64,000 nucleotides of DNA from Clostridiales bacterium (GTDB taxonomy: Bacteria; Bacillota; Clostridia; Christensenellales; CAG-138): assembly GCA_009779405.1 (NCBI GenBank), contig WREI01000006.1:1171-65170 (forward strand), in the 5' to 3' direction. Numbering within the stretch: the first letter of the stretch is position 1; the number at the start of each line of letters is the position of its first letter. The translations under genes were made by a program, and so were the position numbers. A model generated the notes under the pieces. It was not told the origin of the DNA, ran no database searches, and saw only the letters and a program-made list of their open reading frames with translations. This document shows, piece by piece, positions 16,504 through 55,354 of this stretch.

Positions 16504-16937
16504 AATTTTTCTCTCCGAATCTATAACAATAATATAACCGGGCCGTGCTGCCCGGTTATGCAAACAAAACGACGCGTCAGTTCGCGGGAATAATAGACAG
16601 AATACGCCCTGCGTAACGGATGTATATATGAGCCCTGCGGATAAACGTCCGCTCCGCTCAAAAAAAGTTCTGTAAATCTATATCCCAACACGTGCGGCAG
16701 CACATGATTACTCATAGGTTACAATAACAGAGCTTGGGAATCTTGTCAAGAAAAATTTAGCAGTGGCAGCATGCCGCGCGCCGTACACATTACCGCCGTC
16801 CCCCAAAATCCCCTTTTATACTGCAAAAACATGAATAAACCCGCTATTTTCCGTAAAGAAACCATGAATTCCCGAATGCGCCTACATATTTTATGTATAG
16901 TGTGTCCACATATAACATTTTCTGTAGGGAGAGCAGT

Positions 16938-19900
16938 ATGTTTATTTTGAAAAAGACGAGACGCACGCTCTGCGCGCTGCTGGCGGCCTTGCTCTGTGCG
17001 GCCGCGTTGCCTTTCGGTGTCCTGAGCCGTGCCGTCAGCTTTGCAGGAAATCTGGACGACCCCGACTGCTCGGCGTGGCGGCCCATTGGCGGGGGTACGA
17101 TCTTCGATATCGAGGCGGACGCGCAGACGGGTGGTTCCTCGGTTTCGCAGGATATCGTTGGCAACGCCGAATATCCGCCCGCCTACATGCAGTTCAGCGA
17201 GAGCGGCGACGCAATCGCCGTGCGCATACGCGTCGACGGCACAGACAGCCCCGCGCCCAACCTGCAATTCAAACGCTTTGCGCATGTGGGCATAGATGTG
17301 GACGGCGACGGCGCGATGGATTTCTACATGGGTACCTATAACCCGACGGGCAATTCCGGGCGCATGGGCATTTACCTCGCCGACCCCGCGCTGGCCAACA
17401 CCGGCCCGAGCAACGCGGGCGTCACAAAGCCCATCGCCTCCTATCAGCCGCGGGCGGGGGAGAACTATTCCTTTATCGAGGTGGGTGTCGGAAGCAACGG
17501 CTTTTCCGGCAACGAGGATTATTTCATCAGCTTTGTATTCACATTGGAGGATATCAACGCCGCGCTCATCAAGGCGGGCAAGCCGGAACTCTGTCTCACG
17601 CCGACCACCTCCTTCTATTTTTGCGCAGGCACGGCCATGCAGGACAACACCTTGAACGCGGATATCTGCGGCATGGACGGCATCGAGAACGGCCCCTGGC
17701 CCAATATCCCGCCCATCTCCACGGATGGCGCGGAATATTTTATCGTGACCTATGACAACAGCATCGGCGACTCCGAGGCCGCCCCGCGCACGATCCCCTT
17801 CAAGGAGGATGTGCAGACGAAGCAGGCGACGGCGGACCGCTATCCCGCGACCAACCCGAAAAAGCGCGTCACGGCGGACGGCAAGAGCTGGACCTTCGAG
17901 GGCTGGAGCACGACAAACCCCTATGACGAGAACGGCGACTTCATCGGTCCCGTCACCCCCTTTACCGTACCCGCGGCCATCGGCGCGAACATAACGGTCT
18001 ATGCGGTGTGGCAGAGCCACGACAGCGAACAGGTGGTGGAGGACCTCGTCGTCCACTTCAACCCCGGCGGCGGCACATGGACAGGTTCGGATATACAGGA
18101 TGGCCACAACAACTATTGGCACATCGAATCGGATGACGGCATCATTCCCTTCATGCCGCCCAACCCCGGCACGGCGGGGCTTCCCTCCCTGACGGGCCAA
18201 AACATCTATGTATTTGGCGGGTGGGTAACCACTTTCCAGGTATACGGAAAGGGCAGCAATCCCAACATTGTAGTGCTTTCCGACGGTTCTACGGGCGCGA
18301 TCGGCGAGCTGAATTTCCACATTTGGAGCAACCTGGTCAGCGAATTGATGACGCCCAACCAAGCGGGCATAGCGTCCTTGGCGGGGCATGGAGATGAACC
18401 CACGGTCTATGCCCTGTGGCTGGTGGTGCAGGGAAACAAGATTCCCTACAAAATAAATTTCTACGACAACATATATACGGGTACGCCCGTTGCCCCGGTC
18501 TACGGCACCCTCCTGTACGCAATTTTCGGCGCGAATGGCGGTAAGACAAACTATTCGCCGATGGCGCCGACGCGGCAGGGCTATGCCTTCCGTGGCTGGG
18601 ACACAAACCCCAATGGCACGGGTACGCGCTATGAGGATCCGTATAATGGCGCAAGCGCCCTGATCACGACGATCTCGCTGTCGGCGGATATGAACCTCTA
18701 CGCCATCTGGGAGCCCGCGCAGTACGCGCTGCAATTCCTGCCAAACAGCGTGGATATGAACGGCAACGCCCTGATCGGTCTGCCGCAGGGCAGCTTCGGC
18801 GGCATACTCTGCCCGCCCGCCACGGACGGCATCAAATATCCCGCATTTCCCGCCGCGCCGATGCTTGCGGGCTACACGTTCAAGGGCTGGAACACCGACT
18901 CCGACGCGTTCGGCTATTGGGTGAATTATGACGCGCAGAGCGCCGCTTACAGCGGCGAGAATATCACGCCCGGCGGCAATCTCCGCTATTCCCTGCTCGA
19001 CTATGCCGTGCCGGAAAACCTCCTCCCCGGCACGGTTCCGGAGGCCTATAATCGTCTCTATGCCATCTGGGAGAAGGATGTGACGTCAGGCGACGAATAT
19101 TCCGTCGTCTTCTATGCCAACGGCTATGAAGCGGATGAACTGACCCCCGAAACGGGCGGCCTGTTCACGGACGGCGTATCACTGACCCTGGCCATCCCGG
19201 TCGTGGACAACCATGTGCCGGGCGCGCACTATGCGACTTTCGCGCCGCCGACGAAGGAGGGCTATGTCTTCGTCGGCTGGAGCTATCAAAGCGATCCCAA
19301 GCGCGCGGCGGCCTTCTTCCATCCCGCCGCGAGCGAGCTGATTTTTCTGGGCCAGACCAATGTCTACGCGGTCTGGACGCCGATCCCCGATATCTATACC
19401 GTCGCCTTCCACCCGAATAGCGGCGCCTGGCCCGAGGAGAACCCGGACTATATCGCCGAGCTCCCGAACGGCCTGAATGGTCCCATCGAGGTGGAAACGG
19501 ACTATTTCGGCATGGTCGTCTATGTCCCCTATTCCGCCAATCCGACGGGTCCTGTGAAGGAGGACTTCGTGTTCATGGGCTGGAATCTCGCGCCTGACGG
19601 CTCCGGCGCGGTCTTCCTCTCCGACACGGAGGTGACGGCCTACACGCAATACCTCGTCAGCGACCCGAACGATGCGGGCAAAAAACTGCTGCCGGTCTAC
19701 GCCCAGTGGCAGAGCGCGCTGGTGGGTACGGTGCTCGTCGTCTTCTATCGCAACGACGGCAGCACGGGCAACGGCGCGTACTATATCGATCTGACGCACT
19801 ATACCGAACAATATACACCCTGGCCCGCGGGTACGACGATCCAGGAGCCCCTCAATCCCGACAACGGCAAGGGCTGGACCTTTGCGGGCTGGTATAAGGA

Positions 19901-21269
19901 CGCCGCCTGCACAACCGGACAGGCCTGGAATTTCGGCAATGACCTCGCGGGGCGTGACCCCACGAACCTCTATGCCAAATGGCTCGTCGACCTCGTATTC
20001 GACTGGAACTGCGGCACGCCCAATATATACCACAGCGCCACCGTGCAATATGGCGCGGCCTATGCCGAGCCGACCCCGCCCACCAGGCAGGTCGCCACCT
20101 TCCTCGGCTGGTATGCGGACGCGGCCTGCACCATACCCTGGGACTTTGAAGCCCCCCGCCTTGCTCCCGCAACGGTCTATGCCGCCTGGGACGAGCCCGA
20201 ACCGCACGAGCACGACTTCGTTTGGGATTCCGAAGAACCCGCGACCTGTACGGAGGGCGGATGGAACATATGGGTCTGCGAATGCGGCGAAGAGCAGCGG
20301 GAGCCCACCGATCCCCTCGGCCACGACTGGGGCGAATGGTACGAGGTCTATCCGCCTGAAGACGTAGAGCGGCGCGACTGCCTGCGTGAAGACTGTGAAG
20401 CCTATGAGACCCGCCCCCTCCTCCCCGCGCACGAGCACGACTATACGGAAATCATGATCCACGCAACCTGCACAGAGGAGGGCAGGGTGACGACTGCCTG
20501 CGAATGCGGCGATGCGGCGATGGAAATCCTCCCCGCCCTCGGCCACGACTGGGGTGCGTGGTATGAAATGATCGCGCCCCAAATCGGCATACCGGGCGAG
20601 GAGCGGCGCGAATGCCTGCGCGGTTTTTGCGATGCCTTTGAAATCCGCCCCATAGACCCGTTGCCGCCCCTGCCCGCCATAAGCGTTACAACCCTCGGCG
20701 CGCAGGCAAAAACCGACGCCTCCGCCCTGCGCTATGGCGCGTCCCTGCGCTTGAGCGAGCTGCAGGCCCTGCTCAAGCCCGGCGATATCCTGATCTTCGG
20801 CTTCTATGATATGATGCTGACGACCTACACGAACGGTCTGCTCCACCTGACAACGGGGACAGATGCCCTGCGCCGCGTCGTCTGCTCCGATGGCACGAAC
20901 AACAATTCGGGCCGGAGCATCACCTGGACCGAAGAATTAGATACGGCCAAAGATGCCCAGGCCTGGTTGGATGCCCTGCGCGCGGGCGGCCGCACAGACG
21001 TCAAAATCTTCTCCGTCCACGGCGATATCATCGAATACTGCGTAATGCTGGACAATGCCCCCACATCCATGCAGAGCGCGTTCGTCGCATTCATGCCCTT
21101 CGTCGAAGCGCTGCTGCTTGGAGAAAATTCCACATATTTACCCTTGTCAGAAGACGGGATTTTGGGTATAATGAAATACAATTCGATCAACAATATACTG
21201 TTTGCCGAGATCAAGCGTAGCAGAAACCTCTCCTATCCCTATGATCCCGCCAGCCCGTATAACGAATAG
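16938..21269 (+). CDS. Giant secreted surface protein with eight Listeria-Bacteroides (Flg_new-type) repeats and a duplicated Cys/His module
   Basis: Start at ATG 16938 after AGGGAGAG, with a signal peptide (MFILKKTRRTLCALLAALLCAAALPFGVLS). Eight G-[YW]-x-F-x-G-W repeats are present (WTFEGW, YVFGGW, YAFRGWDTNPNGTG, YTFKGWNTD, YVFVGW, FVFMGWNLAPDGSG, WTFAGWYKDAAC, TFLGWYADAAC). I saw no LPXTG, SLH or dockerin anchor. Confidence 0.85.
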   Translation: MFILKKTRRTLCALLAALLCAAALPFGVLSRAVSFAGNLDDPDCSAWRPIGGGTIFDIEADAQTGGSSVSQDIVGNAEYPPAYMQFSESGDAIAVRIRVDGTDSPAPNLQFKRFAHVGIDVDGDGAMDFYMGTYNPTGNSGRMGIYLADPALANTGPSNAGVTKPIASYQPRAGENYSFIEVGVGSNGFSGNEDYFISFVFTLEDINAALIKAGKPELCLTPTTSFYFCAGTAMQDNTLNADICGMDGIENGPWPNIPPISTDGAEYFIVTYDNSIGDSEAAPRTIPFKEDVQTKQATADRYPATNPKKRVTADGKSWTFEGWSTTNPYDENGDFIGPVTPFTVPAAIGANITVYAVWQSHDSEQVVEDLVVHFNPGGGTWTGSDIQDGHNNYWHIESDDGIIPFMPPNPGTAGLPSLTGQNIYVFGGWVTTFQVYGKGSNPNIVVLSDGSTGAIGELNFHIWSNLVSELMTPNQAGIASLAGHGDEPTVYALWLVVQGNKIPYKINFYDNIYTGTPVAPVYGTLLYAIFGANGGKTNYSPMAPTRQGYAFRGWDTNPNGTGTRYEDPYNGASALITTISLSADMNLYAIWEPAQYALQFLPNSVDMNGNALIGLPQGSFGGILCPPATDGIKYPAFPAAPMLAGYTFKGWNTDSDAFGYWVNYDAQSAAYSGENITPGGNLRYSLLDYAVPENLLPGTVPEAYNRLYAIWEKDVTSGDEYSVVFYANGYEADELTPETGGLFTDGVSLTLAIPVVDNHVPGAHYATFAPPTKEGYVFVGWSYQSDPKRAAAFFHPAASELIFLGQTNVYAVWTPIPDIYTVAFHPNSGAWPEENPDYIAELPNGLNGPIEVETDYFGMVVYVPYSANPTGPVKEDFVFMGWNLAPDGSGAVFLSDTEVTAYTQYLVSDPNDAGKKLLPVYAQWQSALVGTVLVVFYRNDGSTGNGAYYIDLTHYTEQYTPWPAGTTIQEPLNPDNGKGWTFAGWYKDAACTTGQAWNFGNDLAGRDPTNLYAKWLVDLVFDWNCGTPNIYHSATVQYGAAYAEPTPPTRQVATFLGWYADAACTIPWDFEAPRLAPATVYAAWDEPEPHEHDFVWDSEEPATCTEGGWNIWVCECGEEQREPTDPLGHDWGEWYEVYPPEDVERRDCLREDCEAYETRPLLPAHEHDYTEIMIHATCTEEGRVTTACECGDAAMEILPALGHDWGAWYEMIAPQIGIPGEERRECLRGFCDAFEIRPIDPLPPLPAISVTTLGAQAKTDASALRYGASLRLSELQALLKPGDILIFGFYDMMLTTYTNGLLHLTTGTDALRRVVCSDGTNNNSGRSITWTEELDTAKDAQAWLDALRAGGRTDVKIFSVHGDIIEYCVMLDNAPTSMQSAFVAFMPFVEALLLGENSTYLPLSEDGILGIMKYNSINNILFAEIKRSRNLSYPYDPASPYNE
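20205..20660 (+). repeat. Tandem duplication of a ~75-aa Cys/His-rich module inside the giant protein
   Basis: Copy 1: HEHDFVWDSEEPATCTEGGWNIWVCECGEEQREPTDPLGHDWGEWYEV..ERRDCLREDCEAYETRP. Copy 2: HEHDYTEIMIHATCTEEGRVTTACECGDAAMEILPALGHDWGAWYEM..ERRECLRGFCDAFEIRP. Five Cys and three His are conserved in register. Confidence 0.8.
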
Positions 21270-39459: not shown

Positions 39460-41172
39460 ATGAAACGCAATCTAAGAAAAATCTTGACCTTGTGCATAGC
39501 CTTGGCCCTGCTGTTGGCCCTGCTTCCCGCAGCCCCCGGTCTCGCAGCGGAAGCCCCGCTAAAGCACGGCGACGCGAACGGCGACGGCAAATTGGACGCA
39601 AGCGATGCCGCCCTCATTCTGCGCCATCTGGCAGGCCTCATCACGCTCGAAGGCGCGCAGCTCGCCGCGGCAAATGCCGACGGCATAGGCGATGTGACCG
39701 CCGCGGACGCCGCCCTCGTCCTGCGCCACCTCGCAGGCCTCGCCACCATCCCCGACTGGGTGGAGCAGCCAAGCCATGGGTTGACAATTGCAGAAGCCTA
39801 TGAAATGGCGCGGGGGAAGGATTTTATTACGAACATTGAGCCCCTCGTCGGCGAGACGAGCGATTGGGAGGAAGTCTGGAATTCGTTTACCCCGACGGAT
39901 TTGAATGATTTCTATCTCAACGAAGGCCGTTATTTTATCTATGTAGAGGAGGAGACCGTCGGGCTTTGGATTCCTGATTGGGATGGGTATCTTTTAATTT
40001 GGGATCTCGAAACAGGGGATACTGCTGCGGAAGAATATTTCACGGAGGAGGAGGACGTGATCGCGTTTCTGAACGGATTATTTGGCGCGGGCGCGTGGAC
40101 ATGGGAGTATCAGGGGTATACCCGGCTGATTTGGATCAACGTACCCGACCCGCGTTTCCCGGATGGTATGAAGGTCAGTATTTGGTATTATTCGATGGAG
40201 GATTGTTTCTATTGTGATTTCATAGACGCCGAACTGAATGATTACGTCTATTATGAGATACCGGGAAGTACGCTGGAAGACTTGATTCTCGCTCTGAACG
40301 ACATCTTTACGGACGGATGGGAATTTGTAGAGTCTACCTTTGTTGAAGGGCCGACTACCGAAGTATGGTGGGCTGTCAGGATGGACTTCACAAACGAATA
40401 TATCGATCCGTTCAGTTACCACAAGGGTACATATCCCGATGACTTGCTCTGTTCCGCCATGCTCGAGTTTGATTGTTATGATTACGAAAACGGCGGCTAT
40501 ATAGACATTGCGAATGCTGTCGCGACAGAACTATCTGTAAAAACGTATCAAATAATAATTGACGAATTCGTGGGCGTATGGTACATGCCCATTGAAGTGC
40601 AGACATATAACGATCCGTCCGAAATAGCGGAAGCGCTGCAGACGTTTTTCGCTACATACGAAGGAACAGGGAAATCCGAGTTTATATCTGAAATCCCGGA
40701 TGTATTAGATGCGTTACAGATGTGGGAGACACTTCGAGCAGAAATGCCGCGCTTGACGAAAGAGGAAGAACAGGAAAACGAGGAAAACCCAAATCAATAT
40801 AAAGGTATTGGGTTTGGTGTTATATCAACGAACATGTACGGATATCGCAACACGGGCTACACTGTCTCTCCACGGGATGAGGATTTCCCGAACGTGCCAT
40901 TAGAGAATGTGGCGTGGGTATTGCAACTGGGTTATCTCGGCTATGGCGAATGCGTGCCATGTACACCTGCGTACTCGTGGAATCCACTCGTATCATTGAA
41001 GGCAACCATCGCCGTGGATAAGGCGGGCGCCGCGCACGTGTCGCAATACTTTTCTGTATCATCCGATATGTACCCGCAGGGCTTCGTCCCCTCATCGGGC
41101 GCAAGCCAATGGCAGGCGTTCATAGAATTCATGGCATATGTGATGGATGCATCCAATTGGACCCTCCCATAA
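39460..41172 (+). CDS. Secreted protein: N-terminal dockerin plus a ~470-aa acidic, aromatic-rich domain of unknown function
   Basis: GGAGGAGAG lies upstream of the start and a signal peptide is present. Two Ca-loop/helix segments form the dockerin (GDANGDGKLDASDAALILRHLAGL and ANADGIGDVTAADAALVLRHLAGL). No domain was recognised in the remainder, and the 3' half is visibly AT-richer. Confidence 0.85.
   Translation: MKRNLRKILTLCIALALLLALLPAAPGLAAEAPLKHGDANGDGKLDASDAALILRHLAGLITLEGAQLAAANADGIGDVTAADAALVLRHLAGLATIPDWVEQPSHGLTIAEAYEMARGKDFITNIEPLVGETSDWEEVWNSFTPTDLNDFYLNEGRYFIYVEEETVGLWIPDWDGYLLIWDLETGDTAAEEYFTEEEDVIAFLNGLFGAGAWTWEYQGYTRLIWINVPDPRFPDGMKVSIWYYSMEDCFYCDFIDAELNDYVYYEIPGSTLEDLILALNDIFTDGWEFVESTFVEGPTTEVWWAVRMDFTNEYIDPFSYHKGTYPDDLLCSAMLEFDCYDYENGGYIDIANAVATELSVKTYQIIIDEFVGVWYMPIEVQTYNDPSEIAEALQTFFATYEGTGKSEFISEIPDVLDALQMWETLRAEMPRLTKEEEQENEENPNQYKGIGFGVISTNMYGYRNTGYTVSPRDEDFPNVPLENVAWVLQLGYLGYGECVPCTPAYSWNPLVSLKATIAVDKAGAAHVSQYFSVSSDMYPQGFVPSSGASQWQAFIEFMAYVMDASNWTLP
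39568..39741 (+). other. Dockerin module (N-terminal)
   Basis: Duplicated D-x-N/D-x-D-G-x-[LV]-x-x-x-D-A-A-x-[IV]-L-R-H-L-A-G-L segments. Confidence 0.85.
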
Positions 41173-42642: not shown

Positions 42643-44382
42643 TCAGGGAGTTGTAAGCGAACCCAGTCCCGCCAAAGACCGCAGTATTGCCGCCGCGTCT
42701 GCCGCGTCGACTTCGCTGTCGCCGTTTACATTTGCGTTAATCAGCCCCTGCGCGCTGAGCGTGCCCAGTCCCGCCAAATGACGCAGTATTGCTGCGGCAT
42801 CGGCGGCATCGACGCTGCCGTCGCAATTCGCGTCGCCCAAAATGTAGCAGATGTGCGTGTCGTCGCAAATCCAGTGTCCTGCGATGCCGCAGGCCGCCGC
42901 GCCATGCCCGTGCTCACCTTGCCAGCAATTGCTGTGATAGGCAAGTCCGCATTCTGCGTTGCCGTGGTTGCCACCATCGCAGCCAACATGTTCAGGATTG
43001 CCGCAGGGCGCCGCATTATGGTTTGCGCCGTCGCATGCAAAGTGCGCGGGATTCCCGCAGGGCATGCTGCCGCCGTGATTTGCCCCATCGCATCTGAAAT
43101 GCGCGGGGTTGCCGCAGAGCGCCGCCCGGTGGTCACCGGTCGCGCAGTGTAAGTGCTTTCCGCAGGCAGCTGTAGTTGCGTGATAAGCGTCGCCGCCGTG
43201 GCAGTTATAATGGTCGGGATCCCCGCAGGACGCCGGGCTGTGGTCAAGGCCGTCGTTCTCGCATTTATAGTGCCGCCATATACATGGCTGCAAGCTGTGG
43301 TCGCCGCCCTGACAGGTGCAGTGCCAATAGCAGGCGGGCTGATGGATGCTGCCGTCGCAATAATAACCGTTCCCGCAGGCTGTCGGTCTATGGTCGCCGC
43401 CGTCGCAGATAAAATGCCGCATGCAGTTTGGAGATAAGTTGTGACTGGTCAGCCAATAATCTTCTTCGCAGGCAAAGTGATCGTCGCACTGCCCCTTCGA
43501 TTCATGGTCGCCCGCGAAAAATCCGGGTGCGCAGCGATAGTGATTCCCGCAGGCGCCTGTCGTATGCTCGGACGAAACATAGCCGTCCATGCAAAAATAG
43601 TGGTTTCCGCAAGGAGCCGCCCAGTGTTCGGGCGGGCTGAAATTCGCGTCGCAGGCATAATGCTGCCCGCAGATGGCGACGGCGTGCGCGTTTAAGATAA
43701 AGCCGGACTCGTCTTCGTAATGTTTGTTGCAGTCGCCTGCTTCAATGATTTTGCCGCCGGAAGTGAATCGGAAAAACGGGGCTATATACGAAGCTGTACC
43801 TCTCGCGACATACAGACGATCCAAAGCGGGCGCCGTCCACAAGGCATAGCTGCTGTGTGCTTCTACGACCTGGAAAGCGCCTGCCCACAGCAGGGGATTG
43901 TCAAAGCCGCCGGGCAGCCATGTGTTTCGGAATACCACGGTTTTCAGGCTTTGGCACTCACGAAAGGCATAGCCCTGTATCTCTCTGAGATTGGCCGGCA
44001 ATGTGACTGATTTGATGTTTGTACAACCGGCAAACGCGCCTTTATTATACGATGAAACACCTTGCCAATATATGGAGCCCATGATATGCGTAACGGTATC
44101 GGGTATGACCACGGATGTAAGCTTTTTGTTGTTCAGAAACGCGCCGGTTCCTATGTAACGAACAGGGCAGCCGCCGAGCGTAGCGGGAATCACGATATCG
44201 CCGCCGCTGCCGGTGTAGCCGGTGACTGTCGCCCATCCCGCGTAAACAGTATATTCGTAATCTCCCTCCGTCAGGGCCGAACTCTTGCGTGGCGCCGCGC
44301 CGATCACGGCGAGCGCCAGCATAACTGCCATCAACACGGATAGGACGCGAACAGACGCGGGCCTGTCATGCGATGTATTCAT
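42643..44382 (-). CDS. Secreted BspA-type LRR protein with a Cys2His2-like mini-repeat array and a C-terminal dockerin
   Basis: Signal peptide, then a BspA-like LRR region (IPATLGGCPVRYIGTGAF..LTSVVIPDTVTHI..GAFAGCTNIKSVTLPANLREIQGYAFRECQSLKTVVF), about 16 CxxH[YF]xC..H units, and a dockerin (GDANCDGSVDAADAAAILRHLAGL / NVNGDSEVDAADAAAILRSLAGL). Confidence 0.85.
   Translation of the reverse strand: MNTSHDRPASVRVLSVLMAVMLALAVIGAAPRKSSALTEGDYEYTVYAGWATVTGYTGSGGDIVIPATLGGCPVRYIGTGAFLNNKKLTSVVIPDTVTHIMGSIYWQGVSSYNKGAFAGCTNIKSVTLPANLREIQGYAFRECQSLKTVVFRNTWLPGGFDNPLLWAGAFQVVEAHSSYALWTAPALDRLYVARGTASYIAPFFRFTSGGKIIEAGDCNKHYEDESGFILNAHAVAICGQHYACDANFSPPEHWAAPCGNHYFCMDGYVSSEHTTGACGNHYRCAPGFFAGDHESKGQCDDHFACEEDYWLTSHNLSPNCMRHFICDGGDHRPTACGNGYYCDGSIHQPACYWHCTCQGGDHSLQPCIWRHYKCENDGLDHSPASCGDPDHYNCHGGDAYHATTAACGKHLHCATGDHRAALCGNPAHFRCDGANHGGSMPCGNPAHFACDGANHNAAPCGNPEHVGCDGGNHGNAECGLAYHSNCWQGEHGHGAAACGIAGHWICDDTHICYILGDANCDGSVDAADAAAILRHLAGLGTLSAQGLINANVNGDSEVDAADAAAILRSLAGLGSLTTP
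42661..42837 (-). other. Dockerin module (C-terminal)
   Basis: Duplicated Ca-loop plus AADAAAILR[HS]LAGL helices. Confidence 0.85.
42847..43734 (-). repeat. About 16 tandem 15-21-aa Cys2/His2-type coding repeats
   Basis: Example units: CGQHYACDANFSPPEHWAAP, CGNHYFCMDGYVSSEHTTGA, CGNHYRCAPGFFAGDHESKGQ, CDDHFACEEDYWLTSHNLSPN, CGNPAHFRCDGANHGGSMP, CGNPAHFACDGANHNAAP, CGNPEHVGCDGGNHGNAE, and others. Confidence 0.85.
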
Positions 44383-44425
44383 AATGTACTCTCCCTCTGT
44401 AAAACATTCCTTATTTTACAGGGCT

Positions 44426-44434
44426 ATTATATCA
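44426..44434 (-). promoter_or_regulatory. Extended -10 element (TGaTATAAT) upstream of the LRR/Cys-His/dockerin gene
   Basis: The minus strand reads gTGaTATAAT about 45 nt upstream of ATG 44382. A CTGTAAAA..TTTTACAG hairpin lies in the leader. Confidence 0.45.
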
Positions 44435-44441
44435 CAGAAAC

Positions 44442-45446
44442 TTATTTTTTCACATCATATTTGAACGCTTTCACCAGCGTTGTGACAATTTCGAGCAGCA
44501 GCGTAAGGCTGAGCGCACCCAAAACAACCAAATGCAGATTGGCAAACAGCGGTATGAGCTTAGCCCCCTCGCCCTCAAACAAAACAGCTATATTGGAAAG
44601 AAAGACCGGGTTCACTATCCCGCTGCCCGAAAAGACCGCAACCAAGCAGACCAGCATCAGGACATCGGCGACGACGGTCACAACGGCGAGCCGCTTCGTA
44701 TACTGCCCCTCTATGAGCTTCGCGACCTCTTTCCCGATCCCCAGCAAGCCCCACAGAATGATCGGCAGCCAAAAGCCGCGCACGGTCTCGGTGACAAACA
44801 CGGGAATCCAGCCCACGCCCTCCAAGTATACCCCCGCAAACCACGGCACGGCCAGAAAGAGCACGGTGAAGATAAAGGCCCAAACGATACCCATAATGGC
44901 GTCGTGCGGCTTGATACGTGTCTGCTCCTGCGGCACGGCGGGCAAGCGCGCGAACATATCCCCCTCGGGCAGTTTGACTTTTTTACGCTCCAAAATCGCA
45001 AAGATGAAGGTGATAATGGCAAAGGCATTCACAACGCCGCTGAACGCCCCGCCTATGCACTGTGCGAAAAAGCGCCCCACCAAAAGATAGGGGTTTGCGG
45101 GCAGTGGCTCCCCGAAAAGCAGCGCCATCACGCCCGCAATCATCACCACCGCCGCCAGTATGGGCAGCACAATCCTCAAAACGCGCTTATAGAGCAGCAA
45201 ATAAGTACCCGAAATCAGCGCGCGCTGCTCCTCGCCGCTGTATTTCACAGCCAACTCCTCGGGCGTCCCCAATTCCGTCAACACAATCCGCAGATCCTTC
45301 TCGGTCGGCAGCACGGCCCCACAGCGCGTCTCGAGCATATCCGAAATCAGGCTGTCCAGCTCCCGTTCCACCTCCGCCCGCGCCTTCTGCGGCAAGTGGC
45401 GCACCACGGCATAAATATAGCGCTTAATCAGTTCGTGTTCCATCAT
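44442..45446 (-). CDS. PadR-associated membrane sensor protein (DUF1700/HAAS-like)
   Basis: N-terminal HELIKRYIYAVVRHLPQKARAEVERELDSLISDMLE..GTPEELAVKY helical module followed by about six TM helices. ATG 45446 overlaps the padR stop (TGATG). Confidence 0.75.
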   Translation of the reverse strand: MMEHELIKRYIYAVVRHLPQKARAEVERELDSLISDMLETRCGAVLPTEKDLRIVLTELGTPEELAVKYSGEEQRALISGTYLLLYKRVLRIVLPILAAVVMIAGVMALLFGEPLPANPYLLVGRFFAQCIGGAFSGVVNAFAIITFIFAILERKKVKLPEGDMFARLPAVPQEQTRIKPHDAIMGIVWAFIFTVLFLAVPWFAGVYLEGVGWIPVFVTETVRGFWLPIILWGLLGIGKEVAKLIEGQYTKRLAVVTVVADVLMLVCLVAVFSGSGIVNPVFLSNIAVLFEGEGAKLIPLFANLHLVVLGALSLTLLLEIVTTLVKAFKYDVKK

Positions 45447-45787
45447 CAACCCTCCAGCAGTCTTTGTATATCCCGCACATTGCCCAACCAATGCGCCCGC
45501 ATCTCGGCCAAAACTTCCCCGCCAAACGCGGTTAAGACATAATATTTGCGCGGCTTCGCGCCGTCCGTATTCCACGAGCTACAGAGCAAACCCTGCCCCT
45601 CCAAACGCCTGAGCAGGGGATAGAGCGTGTTCGCTTCAATGGCCACCCCCGAATCCGCCAGCTCCGCAATCAAATTGTACCCATAAGTCGGCTCCCGCAA
45701 TTTCGCCAGCACGCAAAGCACCACCGTCCCCCGGCGCAACTCCAAAACAAACCCGGAAATCAACTCTTTCTTATCCAAATTCATCAC
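45446..45787 (-). CDS. PadR-family transcriptional regulator
   Basis: Winged-helix motif PTYGYNLIAEL...TLYPLLRRLEGQGLL..W....AKPRKYYVLT. Confidence 0.92.
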   Translation of the reverse strand: MMNLDKKELISGFVLELRRGTVVLCVLAKLREPTYGYNLIAELADSGVAIEANTLYPLLRRLEGQGLLCSSWNTDGAKPRKYYVLTAFGGEVLAEMRAHWLGNVRDIQRLLEG

Positions 45788-45808: not shown

Positions 45809-45837
45809 ATTATATAGTGTGGTACACTATATGTCAA
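45809..45837 (-). promoter_or_regulatory. Consensus sigma-A promoter of padR
   Basis: The minus strand reads TTGACA, a 17-nt spacer, then TATAAT. The -10 ends about 20 nt upstream of the padR ATG. Confidence 0.7.
45812..45832. promoter_or_regulatory. Candidate PadR operator (ATATAGTGT-ggt-ACACTATAT)
   Basis: A 9-bp inverted repeat fills the promoter spacer. A third ATAGTGT half-site lies at 45791..45803. Confidence 0.55.
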
Positions 45838-45901: not shown

Positions 45902-47401
45902 TCAGGGCACATTGGGGGCATCATCTCCCAGTTGCGGGGAGTAGTAGAAGGATCCGGTATCCCATCGCTGCGGGTCAAACCCTACAATTTGGCTTTTGTC
46001 CGTGAAAAGGTTGTAGCGGACATCCGCATAATGCAATTCCACAAGCCCGCTCAGATCCAAATTGGTCAGCTTGTTCACTTGACATTGCAAAGCTCTCAGT
46101 CCAAGGTTGCGGCTTAGATCCAACTCAATCAATTCATTGTTGCTGCAATCGAGACCCCATAGCACAGGATTTTCGCCCAAATTCAAATTGACCAATTTGT
46201 TGTTACTGCAATAGAGCATCTGCAGCGCAATGGGCTTGCTTGCGTCCAAATCAGTCAGCTTGTTTTCAAACACATACAAGCGTTCAAGCGCAGGGTTTTC
46301 TCCCAATTGCAGATTGGTCAATTCGTTATTGTTGCAATAGAGAAGATAGAGCGCATCATTCCCGCTTACATCCAGCGCAGACAGATTGTTAAATGTACAA
46401 TTCAGATAATACAACTCGGGGTTTTTGCTCACATCCAGCGCCGTCAGTTGATTGTTACGGCAATCGAGCCACCACAGGGCGTTGTTCTTGCTCAGATCCA
46501 GTTCAGTCAATTGATTGTACTTGCAATTGAAATCTCTTAGCGCCGGATTCTTGCTTACATCCAGCCGGGTCAGGTCATTGTAATCGCACCAAAACAATTC
46601 CAACGCCGGATTTTTGGTCAGATCCAGTTCGGTCAACCGGTTTTTATCGCAGTTCAGTTCGATCAATGCGGGATTCCCGCTTACATCCAGTTCAGTCAGT
46701 TCATTGTATCCGCAATCCAGAATTTCCAGCGCAAGGTTATTGCTCACATCCAGTTCGGTCAAGCCGCTGTTATGGCAGCTGAGTTGTTCCAATGCAAGGT
46801 TGTGGCTCACATCCAGACCGGTCAGCGCATTGTCGCCGCAAAGGAGCGCTTTCAAGGCCGGAAGCCCGGAAAAATCCAAGAAACCTTCCAGTCCGAAATC
46901 ATTGAGAAACAGTTTTACAATGCGCCTATTGGTCACATCCTCCGACCAATATAGAATAGGCCCGTCGTGCATCGTCTCCTTCTTCCAATCCTCCGGGATA
47001 TAGCTGCCGTCGGCGGGATCGGCTTTCTCCCACGACCACCCATTGCTGTCAATGAACGCATTGATAAAGGCCACATCCCCGGGATGATAAAGCGGTTCCA
47101 TCCCCCAGTCCGGCAAGCCGCCCAGCCCCGCCAAATACCGCAGAATCGCGGCGGCATCCGCGGCGCTGACAGCGCCGTCCAAATCCGCGTCGGCGGCAAG
47201 GAGAGCGTCGCCCGTGAGGATACTTGCCCCCGCCAGATGGCGAAGAATCAGCGCGGCATCCTCTGCCGTAATGACGCCGTTGCCATCCACATCGCCGTTC
47301 CGAAAAGGGCTTGCCGCAAGGGACGACGCAATGGCGCAAAACGACGACATAAGCGCCAAAGCAAGCAAGAGAAGCGCCGCTTTTTTTGCAATTGATTTCA
47401 T
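45902..47401 (-). CDS. Secreted protein: N-terminal dockerin plus an array of 22-residue leucine-rich repeats
   Basis: ATG 47401 follows AGGAG, with a signal peptide (MKSIAKKAALLLLALALMSS). The dockerin is GDVDGNGVITAEDAALILRHLAGA / ADADLDGAVSAADAAAILRYLAGL. Then come at least 13 units of L-x-x-L-x-C-x-x-N-x-L-T-x-L-D-[VL]-S-x-N-P-x-L. Confidence 0.88.
   Translation of the reverse strand: MKSIAKKAALLLLALALMSSFCAIASSLAASPFRNGDVDGNGVITAEDAALILRHLAGASILTGDALLAADADLDGAVSAADAAAILRYLAGLGGLPDWGMEPLYHPGDVAFINAFIDSNGWSWEKADPADGSYIPEDWKKETMHDGPILYWSEDVTNRRIVKLFLNDFGLEGFLDFSGLPALKALLCGDNALTGLDVSHNLALEQLSCHNSGLTELDVSNNLALEILDCGYNELTELDVSGNPALIELNCDKNRLTELDLTKNPALELFWCDYNDLTRLDVSKNPALRDFNCKYNQLTELDLSKNNALWWLDCRNNQLTALDVSKNPELYYLNCTFNNLSALDVSGNDALYLLYCNNNELTNLQLGENPALERLYVFENKLTDLDASKPIALQMLYCSNNKLVNLNLGENPVLWGLDCSNNELIELDLSRNLGLRALQCQVNKLTNLDLSGLVELHYADVRYNLFTDKSQIVGFDPQRWDTGSFYYSPQLGDDAPNVP
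46007..46924 (-). repeat. 66-nt periodic coding repeat (22-aa LRR units)
   Basis: Units include LTGLDVSHNLALEQLSCHNSG, LTELDVSNNLALEILDCGYNE, LTELDVSGNPALIELNCDKNR and LTELDLTKNPALELFWCDYND. Confidence 0.85.
47123..47296 (-). other. Dockerin module (N-terminal)
   Basis: Duplicated Ca-loop and helix segments directly after the signal peptide. Confidence 0.85.
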
Positions 47402-47646
47402 ACCGATACTCCTATTCTTCTCTCCCCCTTCATTATAGCAAAGCGCAAAAACCGCGACAATATATGACTGCATCCTTACGAAAACTTTATGTATATGTGA
47501 CAATTGCAACGTGTTTCGGGGACAAAACGAACGAATGGGGGAGGGCATATACAGCTTAAGGATAATAATATTTCGTCGCTTCCAAATGCAGGGCTTTCGA
47601 TTCGCGCAGGGAGGTCTCGTCAAAATAATCACATTTGCATAACACA

Positions 47647-47675
47647 TTGTCTTTATACAAAAACCGTGATACAAT
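47647..47675 (+). promoter_or_regulatory. Candidate promoter of the lipoprotein gene
   Basis: TTGTCT, a 17-nt spacer, then TACAAT preceded by TGa (extended -10). It lies 45 nt upstream of ATG 47720. Confidence 0.45.
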
Positions 47676-47719
47676 GCAAGGGCAAAACCACATATACTGC
47701 TTGCAGGGAGGACAAAGTT

Positions 47720-48448
47720 ATGGCGATCACGAAGAAACTATGCACCCTCGTCCCGGCGCTGCTGTTGGCGCTGTCCCTTGCCGCGTGCGCGGGCATCCCC
47801 GGCGTCCCCGATGCCCCTTCAAACGACAAGATAAGTGCAAGCGCCGCACCCGCCGCTGACCCCTGTCCCTGCTGCCCCGACTGCATACAGGAAGACTGCG
47901 CTTGCGCCGACTGCGGTGACAGCGAAGCCTGCGAATGTGCCGCGCCCGGCAGCGGAGCCATCTATACGATAAGCGCGGGAGGTACAGATAAGCATATCGA
48001 AAATGAATATGCCAAATTCGACTTTACCATCATGTTTTCGGCGGAGAATGAAGGCGACGGCTTGTACGGTGACTACACAGGAATCGGAGAGTTGCGGATT
48101 GACTATGACGAGACCGATTACCTCGCAGCGATGGGCGGCCAAATGACATCGGCAAAATTAGTCATTGACGGGTTGCTGAACAATATCCGCTTCACATTAG
48201 AAGAGCCCCGGTCCGAGGACGAGCCCAATATCATAGCGCGGGGCAGCGGGGCGATGCAGTGGGATAATGCCGTGATCGAAAACATATTCGTCACGAAGGA
48301 CGGCGGCATCACGTTCATCCCGTGGAACGGGAACAGCACAGAGCATTTCACGATCGAAATCGAGATATACGACAGCGGCGACGGCGTGCTTTATATCAGT
48401 TATTATTTCGCATCGCTAAGCTATCCGCTTCGTCTCACCATGCATTGA
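47720..48448 (+). CDS. Lipoprotein with a Cys-dense linker, function unknown
   Basis: ATG 47720 follows AGGGAGGA. Signal peptide with lipobox LSLAAC, then DPCPCCPDCIQEDCACADCGDSEACECAAPG, then a ~170-aa domain I could not assign. Confidence 0.7.
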   Translation: MAITKKLCTLVPALLLALSLAACAGIPGVPDAPSNDKISASAAPAADPCPCCPDCIQEDCACADCGDSEACECAAPGSGAIYTISAGGTDKHIENEYAKFDFTIMFSAENEGDGLYGDYTGIGELRIDYDETDYLAAMGGQMTSAKLVIDGLLNNIRFTLEEPRSEDEPNIIARGSGAMQWDNAVIENIFVTKDGGITFIPWNGNSTEHFTIEIEIYDSGDGVLYISYYFASLSYPLRLTMH

Positions 48449-52660: not shown

Positions 52661-55354
52661 ATGAAAAAAACAAGAAAAAACTTTGCCGTATTGCTGGCAG
52701 CGATCCTGATGCTGACCCTGTTGCCCATGTTTACGCTTCGCTCGGCATTGGCGCTGTCGCCGGGCAACGACGCCGCATGGATGGGGAATTGGACAGACCA
52801 ATCATCCCCCGCTGCGCTGCTCGACCCCTCGGATATCGCGGCGGATAACAACGGCAACATTTATGTTGTGGATTATACCTACCAGTTGTTATGGAAATAC
52901 ACGGCGTCAACGGGGCTTTGGACAACCATTACCCCCTCCGGTCAAATGTATCCGGGCAGGCGTTTCAAGTGGGTTGCGGTCGACGGAGCGGGCAATGTAT
53001 ACATCGCGGCCACCGAAACGTATGCGCCCGGTTACCCCCTTGTCTTAATGTATAAGGAGGGCAGCGGTTGGTCGGACATCACCCATGGCAACTTATTTCA
53101 GGAAATAAGCGGAATTGCCGCGGACAGCAAGGGCAATGTGTACGCCATCGACGCGCGCGCGGCCATCCCCAACGTTTCGCCCAACAATACCAGTGCGGTA
53201 TACAGGCTGGCGGCCGGGACGAACGCATGGGTGGGGATCACCGGCTCCTTTACGGGCGGCATCTTCAACAACCCGAGCTGGACGGACTGGAGCAGCCCGT
53301 TCCGCGCCCCTATCGCGGTCGCGGTGGATAAAAACGACAATGTCTATGTTGTGACGGAGCAGTTTACCTATGCCACCACCCTCTTTAGCAGTGCCATCTA
53401 TCAATACAATAACACGCCCGGCGATTGGGATGCGCTATTCAGTACGCGCAACCTTGTGCCAAACCCGACGGGGCTCGCCATAGACAGCCAGGGCGTCTTC
53501 TACGTGAGCGATTCGGTCAGGAAGTATGTCTATGCCATCTTCCCGGCGTCGGATACGATTTATCAGATAGAAAACGCGCCGGGCGGCACGAATCTGTTCC
53601 AGGCACCCGCAGGCATCGCGGTGGATGGCAAGGACAACGTGTATGCCCTCGACATGGTCGGCGGCGCGGGAAAGGTTTACAAGCATATAGCCTGGGTCAA
53701 CCAAATCGCCTGGACGACCCATCCCGGCGGCGGCGTGTATGAGGATCAGCCGCTGGGCAGCGCACCCGCCGTACTGCTGAAAACGACGGGCGGCGAGACG
53801 GTGACCGTCGCGGACGCGGCGTTGGTCGCACTTGCGCTCACCACCCCGAGCGGCGCAGTCCTAAACGGCACAAAATCCAAAACATGGACAAGTGGCGCGG
53901 CGAGCTTCCCCGGTCTCAGCGTGGATACCTACGGCACCTATACACTGACCGCTTCGTCCACATTACAGAGCAGCCAAATCACGCGCTTGTTCAGCGGCGG
54001 GATTTATTATCCCGGCGGAGAGACCCTCTATGGCGCGACCATCCGTTCCGCCCCCAGCAACTCATTCACCATCGGCGCGTACCCGCCCATCGAAGGGACT
54101 TTGGGCGCACTGACCTTGGACGGATCAAACGGCAGGCTGACTGCCACGGTTTCGGGCGGCTCGGGGGTTTATGTCTATACATGGTCGGTGGCGGGGCAGG
54201 GGGCGCCGGTGAATACGCCCTCCGGCAACACATATCTGCCAGCCGCAAGCGAGCTCGGCAAGGCCATCACCTGCACGGTGACCAAGGCGGAGCGAAAGGG
54301 CAGCCTGACGGCAAGCGAGACGGTCTATCGCGCGGATATCACTGCATCCGGCGCGCAGGGCGCGGACGCGGTTGCCATCCGAGGCTTCACCAGATATGGC
54401 AAGCACCTGGACACCATGATTATAGACTACACGCTGGCAAACATAGGTAACGCAAGCAACACCCTCACATATTCGGGCAAGGCAACCCCGCCCATACCGG
54501 TCACGGCGCCCGGCAGCAGTTCCTCCTATACCCAGTTTGTGTCCGGCGATGCGGTGAACGGTGTCATCACGCTTGTCGGGACATTTGCGCACACAAATCA
54601 TGTCTTGACCGGGACGGTGGGCATCGATGTGAACAGCGCCGACGGCACGCTGACGGCGAACACAAGCGCTGTCACGGGCGGCTCGGGCGCGTTTGCATAC
54701 GCATGGTCGGGCGAGAGTGTCACCGATTCCGGCGCCGCTACGCTCCCTGTGGAGAACTATAATTTGGGCCAAGAGCTCACGCTGACCCTCACCCGTGCCG
54801 ACGCCCCCGGCAGCCAGCTGACGGCGACCATCAAGGTATACAAGGTGGAAGCGTCCCTGTCCGGCAATATACCGGGCGATTCGATCACGATCGCGGGCCC
54901 CTACGGCAAGGTGGGCAGCCAAATCGCAATAGCCTATGTCGTGTCGGAGGCGGGTACGGCCAACGGTCTGACCCTGTCCGGCCCCGGCGATCTCTTCATC
55001 CCCGAAGAACCGGGAGGAAGCTACCCCTCGACCGACTGGATCGTGTCGGTGTACCCGCTCACCGGTTCCATCAACTATCCGATTCCGAACAATGTGGAGT
55101 TGGGCGGGATCATCACAATCGGGGCGGCTTTTTGGCATGAAGGATATACGCCGCCCCCCCTGCGCGGCGACGCAAACTGCGACGGCGTCGTCGATGCGAA
55201 AGACGCGGCGGCCATCCTGCGCCACCTGGCGGGCCTGTCCACTCTAACGCCGCAAGGCGAAATCAACGCCTTAGTCTCCGGCGGCACAAGCGTCTCCGCT
55301 GTCGACGCGGCGATGATACTGCGCTATCTGGCGGGCTTAATCACAGTACTGTAA
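52661..55354 (+). CDS. Secreted six-bladed NHL-type beta-propeller protein with Ig-like repeats and a C-terminal dockerin
   Basis: Signal peptide, then six blades (NGNIYVVD, AGNVYIAA, KGNVYAID, NDNVYVVT, QGVFYVSD, KDNVYALD). Repeated GGSG-x-[YF]-x-Y-x-WS Ig-like modules follow, then the dockerin GDANCDGVVDAKDAAAILRHLAGL / VSAVDAAMILRYLAGL. Confidence 0.85.
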   Translation: MKKTRKNFAVLLAAILMLTLLPMFTLRSALALSPGNDAAWMGNWTDQSSPAALLDPSDIAADNNGNIYVVDYTYQLLWKYTASTGLWTTITPSGQMYPGRRFKWVAVDGAGNVYIAATETYAPGYPLVLMYKEGSGWSDITHGNLFQEISGIAADSKGNVYAIDARAAIPNVSPNNTSAVYRLAAGTNAWVGITGSFTGGIFNNPSWTDWSSPFRAPIAVAVDKNDNVYVVTEQFTYATTLFSSAIYQYNNTPGDWDALFSTRNLVPNPTGLAIDSQGVFYVSDSVRKYVYAIFPASDTIYQIENAPGGTNLFQAPAGIAVDGKDNVYALDMVGGAGKVYKHIAWVNQIAWTTHPGGGVYEDQPLGSAPAVLLKTTGGETVTVADAALVALALTTPSGAVLNGTKSKTWTSGAASFPGLSVDTYGTYTLTASSTLQSSQITRLFSGGIYYPGGETLYGATIRSAPSNSFTIGAYPPIEGTLGALTLDGSNGRLTATVSGGSGVYVYTWSVAGQGAPVNTPSGNTYLPAASELGKAITCTVTKAERKGSLTASETVYRADITASGAQGADAVAIRGFTRYGKHLDTMIIDYTLANIGNASNTLTYSGKATPPIPVTAPGSSSSYTQFVSGDAVNGVITLVGTFAHTNHVLTGTVGIDVNSADGTLTANTSAVTGGSGAFAYAWSGESVTDSGAATLPVENYNLGQELTLTLTRADAPGSQLTATIKVYKVEASLSGNIPGDSITIAGPYGKVGSQIAIAYVVSEAGTANGLTLSGPGDLFIPEEPGGSYPSTDWIVSVYPLTGSINYPIPNNVELGGIITIGAAFWHEGYTPPPLRGDANCDGVVDAKDAAAILRHLAGLSTLTPQGEINALVSGGTSVSAVDAAMILRYLAGLITVL
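55166..55351 (+). other. Dockerin module (C-terminal)
   Basis: The last ~62 residues carry duplicated Ca-loop and helix segments. Confidence 0.85.

Follow-up and report, generated by a model that had tools for sequence, protein, structure and literature searches.

A 579-amino-acid (aa) exported protein, encoded in a 64,000-nucleotide stretch of Clostridiales bacterium contig WREI01000006.1 (this whole stretch is called the window), carries 16 short Cys-His-Cys-His units back to back between a BspA-type leucine-rich repeat (LRR) domain and a type I dockerin. We provisionally name the element the CH unit and define its family by C1, H6 (or a shortened first loop), [YF]7, C9 and H14. The canonical unit is 18 aa long and reads C1-G-x-x-G-H6-[YF]-x-C9-D-G-x-x-H14-x-x-A-x. 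On balance, the CH unit is probably a minimal Zn(Cys2His2)-type knuckle and the array a metal-stapled rod or stalk running from the LRR head to the dockerin anchor. In the proposed arrangement, each unit would coordinate one Zn2+ through two Cys and two His contributed by a pair of adjacent C-x4-H hairpin knuckles, and successive units would stack into an extended metal-stapled ribbon. About 15-16 zinc sites would link the N-terminal head to the C-terminal anchor, and the array would be a zinc-dependent stalk and also a high-capacity zinc-binding site on the cell surface. The repeat itself, its conservation, its rarity, the extracellular domains that accompany it and the placement of leaderless versions in zinc operons are all observed; from these we infer metal binding by the ligands, zinc as the metal, one ion for each unit and a function as stalk or reservoir.

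The repeat segment (residues 217-512) maps to 42847..43734 and contains 33 Cys and 34 His in 296 aa. Its 16 units are 14-21 aa long, begin at residues 218, 238, 258, 278, 299, 320, 336, 351, 367, 386, 407, 423, 442, 460, 478 and 498, and share the skeleton C-x(2-4)-H-[YF]-x-C-x(3-9)-H. A strict C..H..C..H expression fits 13 of the 16 units, against a mean of 0.58 fits and a maximum of 4 when the segment is shuffled 5000 times with its composition preserved. An earlier note on this DNA had counted about 16 back-to-back Cys/His mini-repeats with almost no hydrophobic core, and both statements hold; V, I, L or M make up only 7% of the segment. Its further claim of two Cys and at least two His in each unit is right for most units and wrong for three. 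Unit 218, a cap unit of a kind likewise seen in relatives, has a single Cys; the first His is missing from unit 336 (CGNGYYC); and the Cys of unit 351 number three. A single-unit hidden Markov model (HMM) finds 15 domain envelopes in the open reading frame (ORF) 42643..44382, with an ORF-level E of 2.3e-8, and has no match outside this ORF in the six frames of the window.

Three unit subtypes are found in the family: the canonical 18-aa form, a 15-16-aa form (CGH[YF]xCxxGxHxxLx) and a 20-21-aa form (CGxH[YF]xCx[DE]G[YF]xxxxH). The window protein mixes subtypes, with long-loop units in the N-terminal half and near-canonical ones at residues 423-477. The latter are its best matches to the family profile (unit-HMM domain E 6.8e-5, 1.5e-6 and 6.6e-3), and the long-loop type recurs at the C-terminus of both the L009 and the L040 protein. 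The repeat exists at the protein level only, as Tandem Repeats Finder (TRF) detects no DNA tandem repeat at the array. Units 423 and 442 share 13 of 14 residues, and 8 of those 13 use different codons; this comparison shows a duplication that is old and has been constrained at the protein level. The absence of a TRF repeat and the high synonymous divergence rule out that the repeat arose by slippage of the DNA or as an artefact of assembly.

Conservation across relatives reads as the signature of a ligand set rather than that of a linker. An alignment of 17 orthologues covering 10 units, built independently of the unit definition, gives by register a conservation of 1.00 for C1, H6 and H14, 0.96 for D10 and 0.95 for C9, followed by G2 (0.91), A17 (0.89) and the loop positions (0.42-0.61). 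The columns invariant in every unit are C1, H6, C9 (C7 in units 4 and 8), D10 and H14. A unit-HMM survey of 546 canonical units from 125 proteins gives 100% for H6 and H14, 99% for C1, 98% for D10 and 84% for C9, and the full C-H-C-H set is present in 454 of these units. The shortfall at C9 comes largely from a variant with Cys at register 7 (10% of the 546 units). In the relative P0003, units 4 and 8 (residues 105-122 and 177-194) have the second Cys at register 7 instead of 9, as CGxxxHCxxDGxxH. This register-7 Cys in every fourth unit is invariant in 17/17 orthologues, a hint that four units may form a superstructure or that the site may have a different geometry there. The units are rich in Gly, Asp and Asn and have no hydrophobic core.

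Relatives without a leader peptide, built from units only, connect the unit with zinc. Leaderless ORFs of just 4-5 units (79-100 aa) are found at L011, L020, L017 and L013 and a 2-unit version at L048; P0057, P0065, P0071 and P0073 are 43-59 aa long. At five loci (L011, L020, L048, L017 and L013) the mini-protein gene lies directly 3' of a CobW/COG0523 GTPase gene. The order at L020 is FUR-family regulator, ZnuA, CobW/CobW_C, mini-protein, ABC ATPase and ABC-3 permease, and L011 and L048 have the same cluster core. The order at L017 is FUR, ZinT-ZnuA fusion, CobW, mini-protein and a second cobW/DUF1980_C gene, while at L013 the mini-protein again follows CobW_C. The second gene at L017 (134-4352, reverse strand) combines a weak cobW match (E 2.5e-5) with a DUF1980 C-terminal domain. 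CobW identity across these loci is 95% inside one group and ~70% between groups, so the linkage between mini-protein and CobW has been kept through substantial divergence. The mini-ORFs look like real genes, with a GGAGG ribosome-binding site (RBS) and, when L011 is compared with L020, 21 codon differences that are synonymous and 7 that are nonsynonymous. Their products are acidic and have no hydrophobic run longer than 2 residues, and a Pfam scan of a leaderless mini-protein returns only zf-HIT at E 0.7. No clear Zur-box operator was seen in the mini-protein zinc clusters by eye. The occurrence of an all-unit protein without export signal in a zinc-limitation operon argues for zinc binding by the unit, which would explain it best. 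Disulfides are not expected in the cytoplasm, and the CH unit in leaderless proteins therefore points to metal binding.

A structure predicted for P0003 by AlphaFold2 (AF2) with the orthologue alignment is compatible with such a module. The best model has predicted local distance difference test (pLDDT) values of 75-88 over residues 60-210; it shows a beta-bridge each 9 residues, at registers 7 and 16, with alternating C-x4-H hairpins and no helix in the repeats. Nine-residue bridges also appear in the weaker AF2 model of window residues 407-512. As modelled, C-G-x-x-G-H and C-D-G-x-x-H would each make a tight hairpin loop, the loops being strung in a continuous ribbon. The only sequence echo in a PDB profile search is the CCHC knuckle of Rous sarcoma virus nucleocapsid (2ihx, E 0.36, not significant), in which CGSPGHY aligns over CGxxGH[YF] without homology. 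The CGxxGH[YF]-type turn is nevertheless one known to chelate from Cys to His in CCHC zinc knuckles. The best Foldseek matches in the PDB are RING-H2, LIM and RBR zinc modules, all at E>3 and not counted as evidence. The invariant ligand-type positions, the CCHC-like turn and the mini-proteins in zinc clusters give indirect support to the metal-knuckle reading of the earlier note.

The same note did not recognise the unit as a named domain, and indeed no Pfam, NCBIfam or PDB entry covers it. Pfam and NCBIfam searches of the 579-aa protein at E<=10 match only the LRR_5 and dockerin regions, searches with the unit or array by PDB sequence, PDB profile and Foldseek against the PDB give nothing significant, and no description of the motif was found in open-access full-text literature. 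The retroviral-type CCHC knuckle (zf-CCHC, PF00098), the nearest known system in size and turn, has in common with the CH unit a ~14-residue core, the lack of a hydrophobic core, the C-G-x-x-G-H-[aromatic] turn and tandem occurrence. However, neither the whole protein nor ideal repeats match this family at E<=10, and the CH unit has C-H-C-H order, 2 Cys and 2 His, and the spacing C-x4-H-x2-C-x4-H instead of C-x2-C-x4-H-x4-C. CCHC knuckles bind nucleic acid, whereas the CH unit is bacterial and mostly extracellular. Classical C2H2 fingers (PF00096) likewise form long tandem arrays with short linkers and two Cys and two His per unit, but they are 28-30 aa long, with beta-beta-alpha fold, hydrophobic core, C-C-H-H order and the spacing C-x2-4-C-x12-H-x3-5-H. 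The CH unit, at 14-21 aa and with no helix predicted by AF2, has no Pfam match to them. With the CDGSH domain of mitoNEET (PF09360, no match at E<=10) it shares only the literal C-D-G-..-H string. That domain is a 39-aa, 3Cys+1His 2Fe-2S module with the pattern C-x-C-x2-(S/T)-x3-P-x-C-D-G-(S/A/T)-H, while the CH unit has 2 Cys and 2 His with C-D-G-x-x-H spacing. Bacterial metallothioneins (SmtA/BmtA, PF02069) and Strep_his_triad were also rejected, the Pfam-A scan at E<=10 giving only LRR_5 and Dockerin_1. SmtA and BmtA are cytosolic zinc binders, and the leaderless CH mini-proteins are likewise small and contain Cys and His. The metallothioneins hold a Zn4Cys9His2 cluster and are induced by metal excess, whereas the CH unit resembles independent 2Cys+2His sites and is found in zinc-uptake clusters.

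The CH-unit family is rare. With the 296-aa segment as query, 20 metagenomic proteins are found, none with a Pfam domain; most have a signal peptide, about ten strict 18-aa units and a conserved Cys-rich C-terminal module. A 3-unit profile run against 1.84 billion representative proteins finds 77 at E<=1e-3 and 14 at E<=1e-30, the family profile reaching E 1e-107. The window protein (as P0035) belongs to the provisional family with E 7.7e-27 and 6 matched stretches. In a word-indexed protein database, the 3-unit alignment profile recovers three fragments only and a 100-aa mini-protein query three matches. A degenerate DNA pattern for the unit (~50 bits) matches 38 loci in 185,579 species genomes, and 38/38 are metagenome-assembled genomes (MAGs), nearly all of uncultured Clostridia of animal or human guts, with four of Candidatus Poribacteria. 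All members known to date come from MAGs, mainly of never-cultured gut Clostridia, and the family is therefore invisible to current annotation. Nearly all members have an N-terminal hydrophobic leader, and the partner domains (PG_binding_1, LRR_5, Lipase_3, Flg_new, Trypsin_2, CBM_4_9, fn3, FecR and dockerin) are extracellular without exception. The combination LRR_5, CH units and dockerin is found in no other member of the set.

Some members have features of their own. The Poribacteria, which are sponge symbionts, are the only clear occurrence of the CH unit outside Clostridia; their proteins (L010, L027, L033 and L041) and P0051 are ~560-600 aa long and carry 2-3 perfect canonical units within a larger Cys/His-rich secreted protein. 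After its ten CH units, P0003 has a conserved ~155-aa Cys-rich C-terminal module (residues 228-385; also in the orthologues P0001-P0017) that reads SKYCNAVPQHMVCQG..CRMCGLLWCD..GGHETPC.., has no Pfam or PDB match and is modelled by AF2 with pLDDT <50. The metagenomic protein of L050 (819-4871, 1351 aa) consists of an N-terminal CxxC/CPxC-dense region, ~40 CH units and a C-terminal globular part.

Several observations weigh against the zinc-stapled stalk. The confident P0003 model is one of five, and the model of the last six window units (residues 407-512), made from a register-shifted 70-sequence alignment, has a pLDDT of 56 and is unusable. Three of the window units have incomplete or odd ligand sets. 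Many relatives carry the array at one end or consist of nothing else, something that a pure stalk role leaves unexplained, and no conserved gene neighbourhood was found for the exported relatives. The association with zinc operons rests on five loci, perhaps three lineages. The 64-kb window has no homologue of ZnuA, ZnuB, ZnuC, CobW or ZinT. The CH gene is not linked to a Zur or zinc-limitation regulon and has PadR, HAAS and MFS genes as neighbours, and linkage to znu, cobW and Fur is found only for leaderless mini-proteins in other genomes. Given the lack of zinc-uptake homologues, and with PadR and HAAS as the apparent regulators, there is thus nothing to tie the window gene to zinc limitation.

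The stalk is best challenged by the idea that zinc capture is the primary role. Surface or secreted arrays would act as a zincophore or sponge that feeds scarce gut zinc to uptake systems, and the cytoplasmic mini-proteins would buffer zinc or hand it to COG0523 chaperones. We consider this possible and clearly less probable than the stalk reading. In the window protein, storage or capture of zinc at the surface is a strong rival to the stalk; in the all-repeat secreted and leaderless members it probably predominates. Pneumococcal Pht proteins are a precedent for extracellular zinc scavenging. Pht proteins and the His-rich regions of ZnuA and ZinT are comparable with the CH arrays by functional analogy only, as surface-exposed multi-site zinc proteins of zinc-limitation regulons. 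Pht proteins rely on HxxHxH motifs within larger folded domains, without Cys ligands, and are unrelated in sequence to the CH unit. Another precedent for extracellular scavenging is ZepA of Anabaena, which is secreted, Zur-regulated, binds zinc and mediates zinc uptake (PMC10957091). It differs from CH arrays in having a single His3 site (H-x2-9-H-F/Y-H) in a globular protein with no repeat, and its sequence is unrelated (PMC10957091). Within the family, capture is favoured by the mini-proteins, which are units only and stand in zinc-limitation operons, and by the many relatives that consist of a signal peptide and units alone or carry the array at a free end. It is disfavoured by the usual tightness and slow metal release of Cys2His2 sites, and by the absence of any zinc-uptake gene or Fur-family regulator near the window gene, P0016 or P0019. 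The position of the array between head and anchor fits a stalk. Since the window protein has this layout and its gene lacks a link to a zinc regulon, we slightly favour the zinc-dependent stalk for it.

A different metal or cofactor is unlikely. The array could hold Ni, Co or Cu(I), or a Rieske-like Fe-S cluster with 2 Cys and 2 His, and serve extracellular redox or another metal. Two Cys and two His are also the Rieske ligand set, the C-D-G-x-x-H string recalls the CDGSH motif, exposed clusters could survive in anaerobic hosts, and the COG0523 and ABC-3 families include members for other metals. However, ZinT and ZnuA domains flank the mini-proteins, and no Pfam match to zf-CDGSH, Rieske or any Fe-S family is obtained at E<=10. 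The 18-aa unit is far below the size of any known cluster-binding fold, and no cytochrome or electron-transfer genes adjoin the window gene. The earlier note had also thought of redox-active modules; nothing here indicates a redox role.

Slightly less probable still is a metal-free repeat in which a C1-C9 disulfide staples each unit, in the manner of beta-helical antifreeze proteins, and the His have another role, for example in sensing pH or contacting a ligand. This would suit exported proteins with two Cys per unit and a regular, solenoid-like period, and also the four members from Poribacteria, which are not strict anaerobes. The leaderless mini-proteins in zinc clusters argue against a role in disulfides only, as identical units occur there in presumably cytoplasmic proteins. 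The two His equal the Cys in invariance, some Cys are left without a partner in view of the cap units and the total of 33 in the window segment, and the gut-anaerobe hosts have no obvious oxidising exterior. A linker that is disordered or of low complexity and lacks any specific fold or ligand would agree with the low AF2 confidence for window units and the Gly/Ala/Asp/Asn-rich composition but is very improbable, given four positions per unit strictly invariant over hundreds of units while loops drift, a peptide conserved between units despite synonymous divergence, and a family profile at E 1e-107.

Taking the family as a whole, we lean towards the CH unit being a minimal metal-knuckle module with a new ligand order and extracellular use, and the founder of a new, unannotated family. 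If each unit binds zinc, it would be among the smallest self-contained metal modules known and, to our knowledge, the first such module that bacteria use extracellularly in long arrays. The unannotated gene between cobW and znuCB in zinc-limitation operons would then have a function as well; as far as we know, the clients and partners of COG0523 chaperones in these operons are still poorly understood. A wider and rather doubtful proposal is that uncultured gut Clostridia handle zinc by a hitherto overlooked system of CH-unit proteins. In the cytoplasm, poly-knuckle mini-proteins from Zur-type operons would cooperate with COG0523 GTPases; secreted or tethered zincophores with 10-40 sites per protein would compete for gut zinc; and the unit would represent a minimal Zn(Cys2His2) fold not seen before, its ligands in C-H-C-H order. 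A short, repetitive and modular unit of this type could be a useful scaffold for metal-binding protein design.

The features of the window gene (the CH gene) and its surroundings are listed in Table 1. The encoded protein was found identical in two independent assemblies. By eye, its leader (VLSVLMAVMLALAVIGAA...SSA) combines a basic n-region with a hydrophobic core of 18 aa and an SSA site of small residues. The LRR_5 match scores 49.5 bits against a cutoff of 27.7 and the type I dockerin match 37.6 bits against 22.9, and two DxxxDGxxxxxD-type loops are visible in the latter; the earlier note had placed an LRR domain before and a dockerin after the repeats, as found. The CH gene starts 59 nt downstream of the PadR/HAAS pair on the same strand, and a 12/12 consensus promoter lies upstream of the PadR gene at 45837..45809. 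A candidate operator is the inverted repeat that separates the -10 element of the CH gene from its RBS; the PadR protein encoded just upstream might be the regulator that binds it. The CH gene and the MFS transporter gene are probably co-transcribed, judging from their spacing.

Table 1. Position and basis of the features of the CH gene and its neighbours in the window
Feature	Position	Strand	Basis
Whole gene, 579-aa exported protein (signal peptide, LRR_5, 16 CH units, dockerin)	42643..44382	-	ORF; both terminal Pfam matches in one frame
Predicted Sec signal peptide, residues 1 to ~36, MNTSHDRPASVRVLSVLMAVMLALAVIGAAPRKSSA then LTE	44275..44382	-	Read from sequence
BspA-type LRR_5 domain, residues 74-153	43924..44163	-	Pfam PF13306, E 5e-13
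Array of 16 Cys-His-Cys-His mini-units, residues 218-511	42850..43731	-	Unit parse, shuffle test, unit HMM, homologues
Four long-loop units (20-21 aa), CG(N/Q)H[YF]xC-x8/9-H type, residues 238-319	43426..43671	-	Unit parse
Three near-canonical 18/19-aa units, CGNP(A/E)H..CDG(A/G)NH, residues 423-477	42952..43116	-	Unit HMM
Type I dockerin (Dockerin_1), residues 515-570	42673..42840	-	Pfam PF00404, E 2.5e-9
Perfect 8-bp inverted repeat CTGTAAAA-N9-TTTTACAG between -10 and RBS of CH gene	44397..44421	.	Unique in window
Promoter-like site, extended -10, GTGAAA-16-TGnTATAAT, 10/12, directly 5' of CH gene	44426..44453	-	Consensus match only
HAAS-domain membrane protein gene	44442..45443	-	HAAS match, precomputed Pfam
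PadR-family regulator gene	45446..45778	-	Precomputed Pfam on identical contig
MFS transporter gene, start 4 nt after CH-gene stop codon	41436..42638	-	Pfam MFS_1, MFS_1_like

Two other exported proteins of the window had been taken by the earlier note as signs of a local theme shared with the CH array, and this is not borne out. The first, at 20205-20660 (forward strand) within the ORF 16893-21269 of a 1458-aa Flg_new surface protein, contains two copies (47% identity, E 1e-21) of a distinct ~76-aa Cys/His module. This module reads HEHD[FY]..ATCTEEG..CECG..LGHDWGxWYE..RxCLRxxCxAxExRP; it is matched by neither Pfam nor the PDB and bears no relation to the CH unit. The second is a lipoprotein at 47717-48445 (forward strand) with an LAAC lipobox and no Pfam match, whose acidic linker DPCPCCPDCIQEDCACADCGDSEACEC contains Cys only and no His. 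Dockerin-bearing exported proteins number four within 16 kb, the CH protein included. The three others are encoded at 39460-41172 (forward strand), 45902-47674 (reverse strand) and 52661-55354 (forward strand); one has an N-terminal dockerin, one an LRR_4 match and one faint NHL/SBBP matches.

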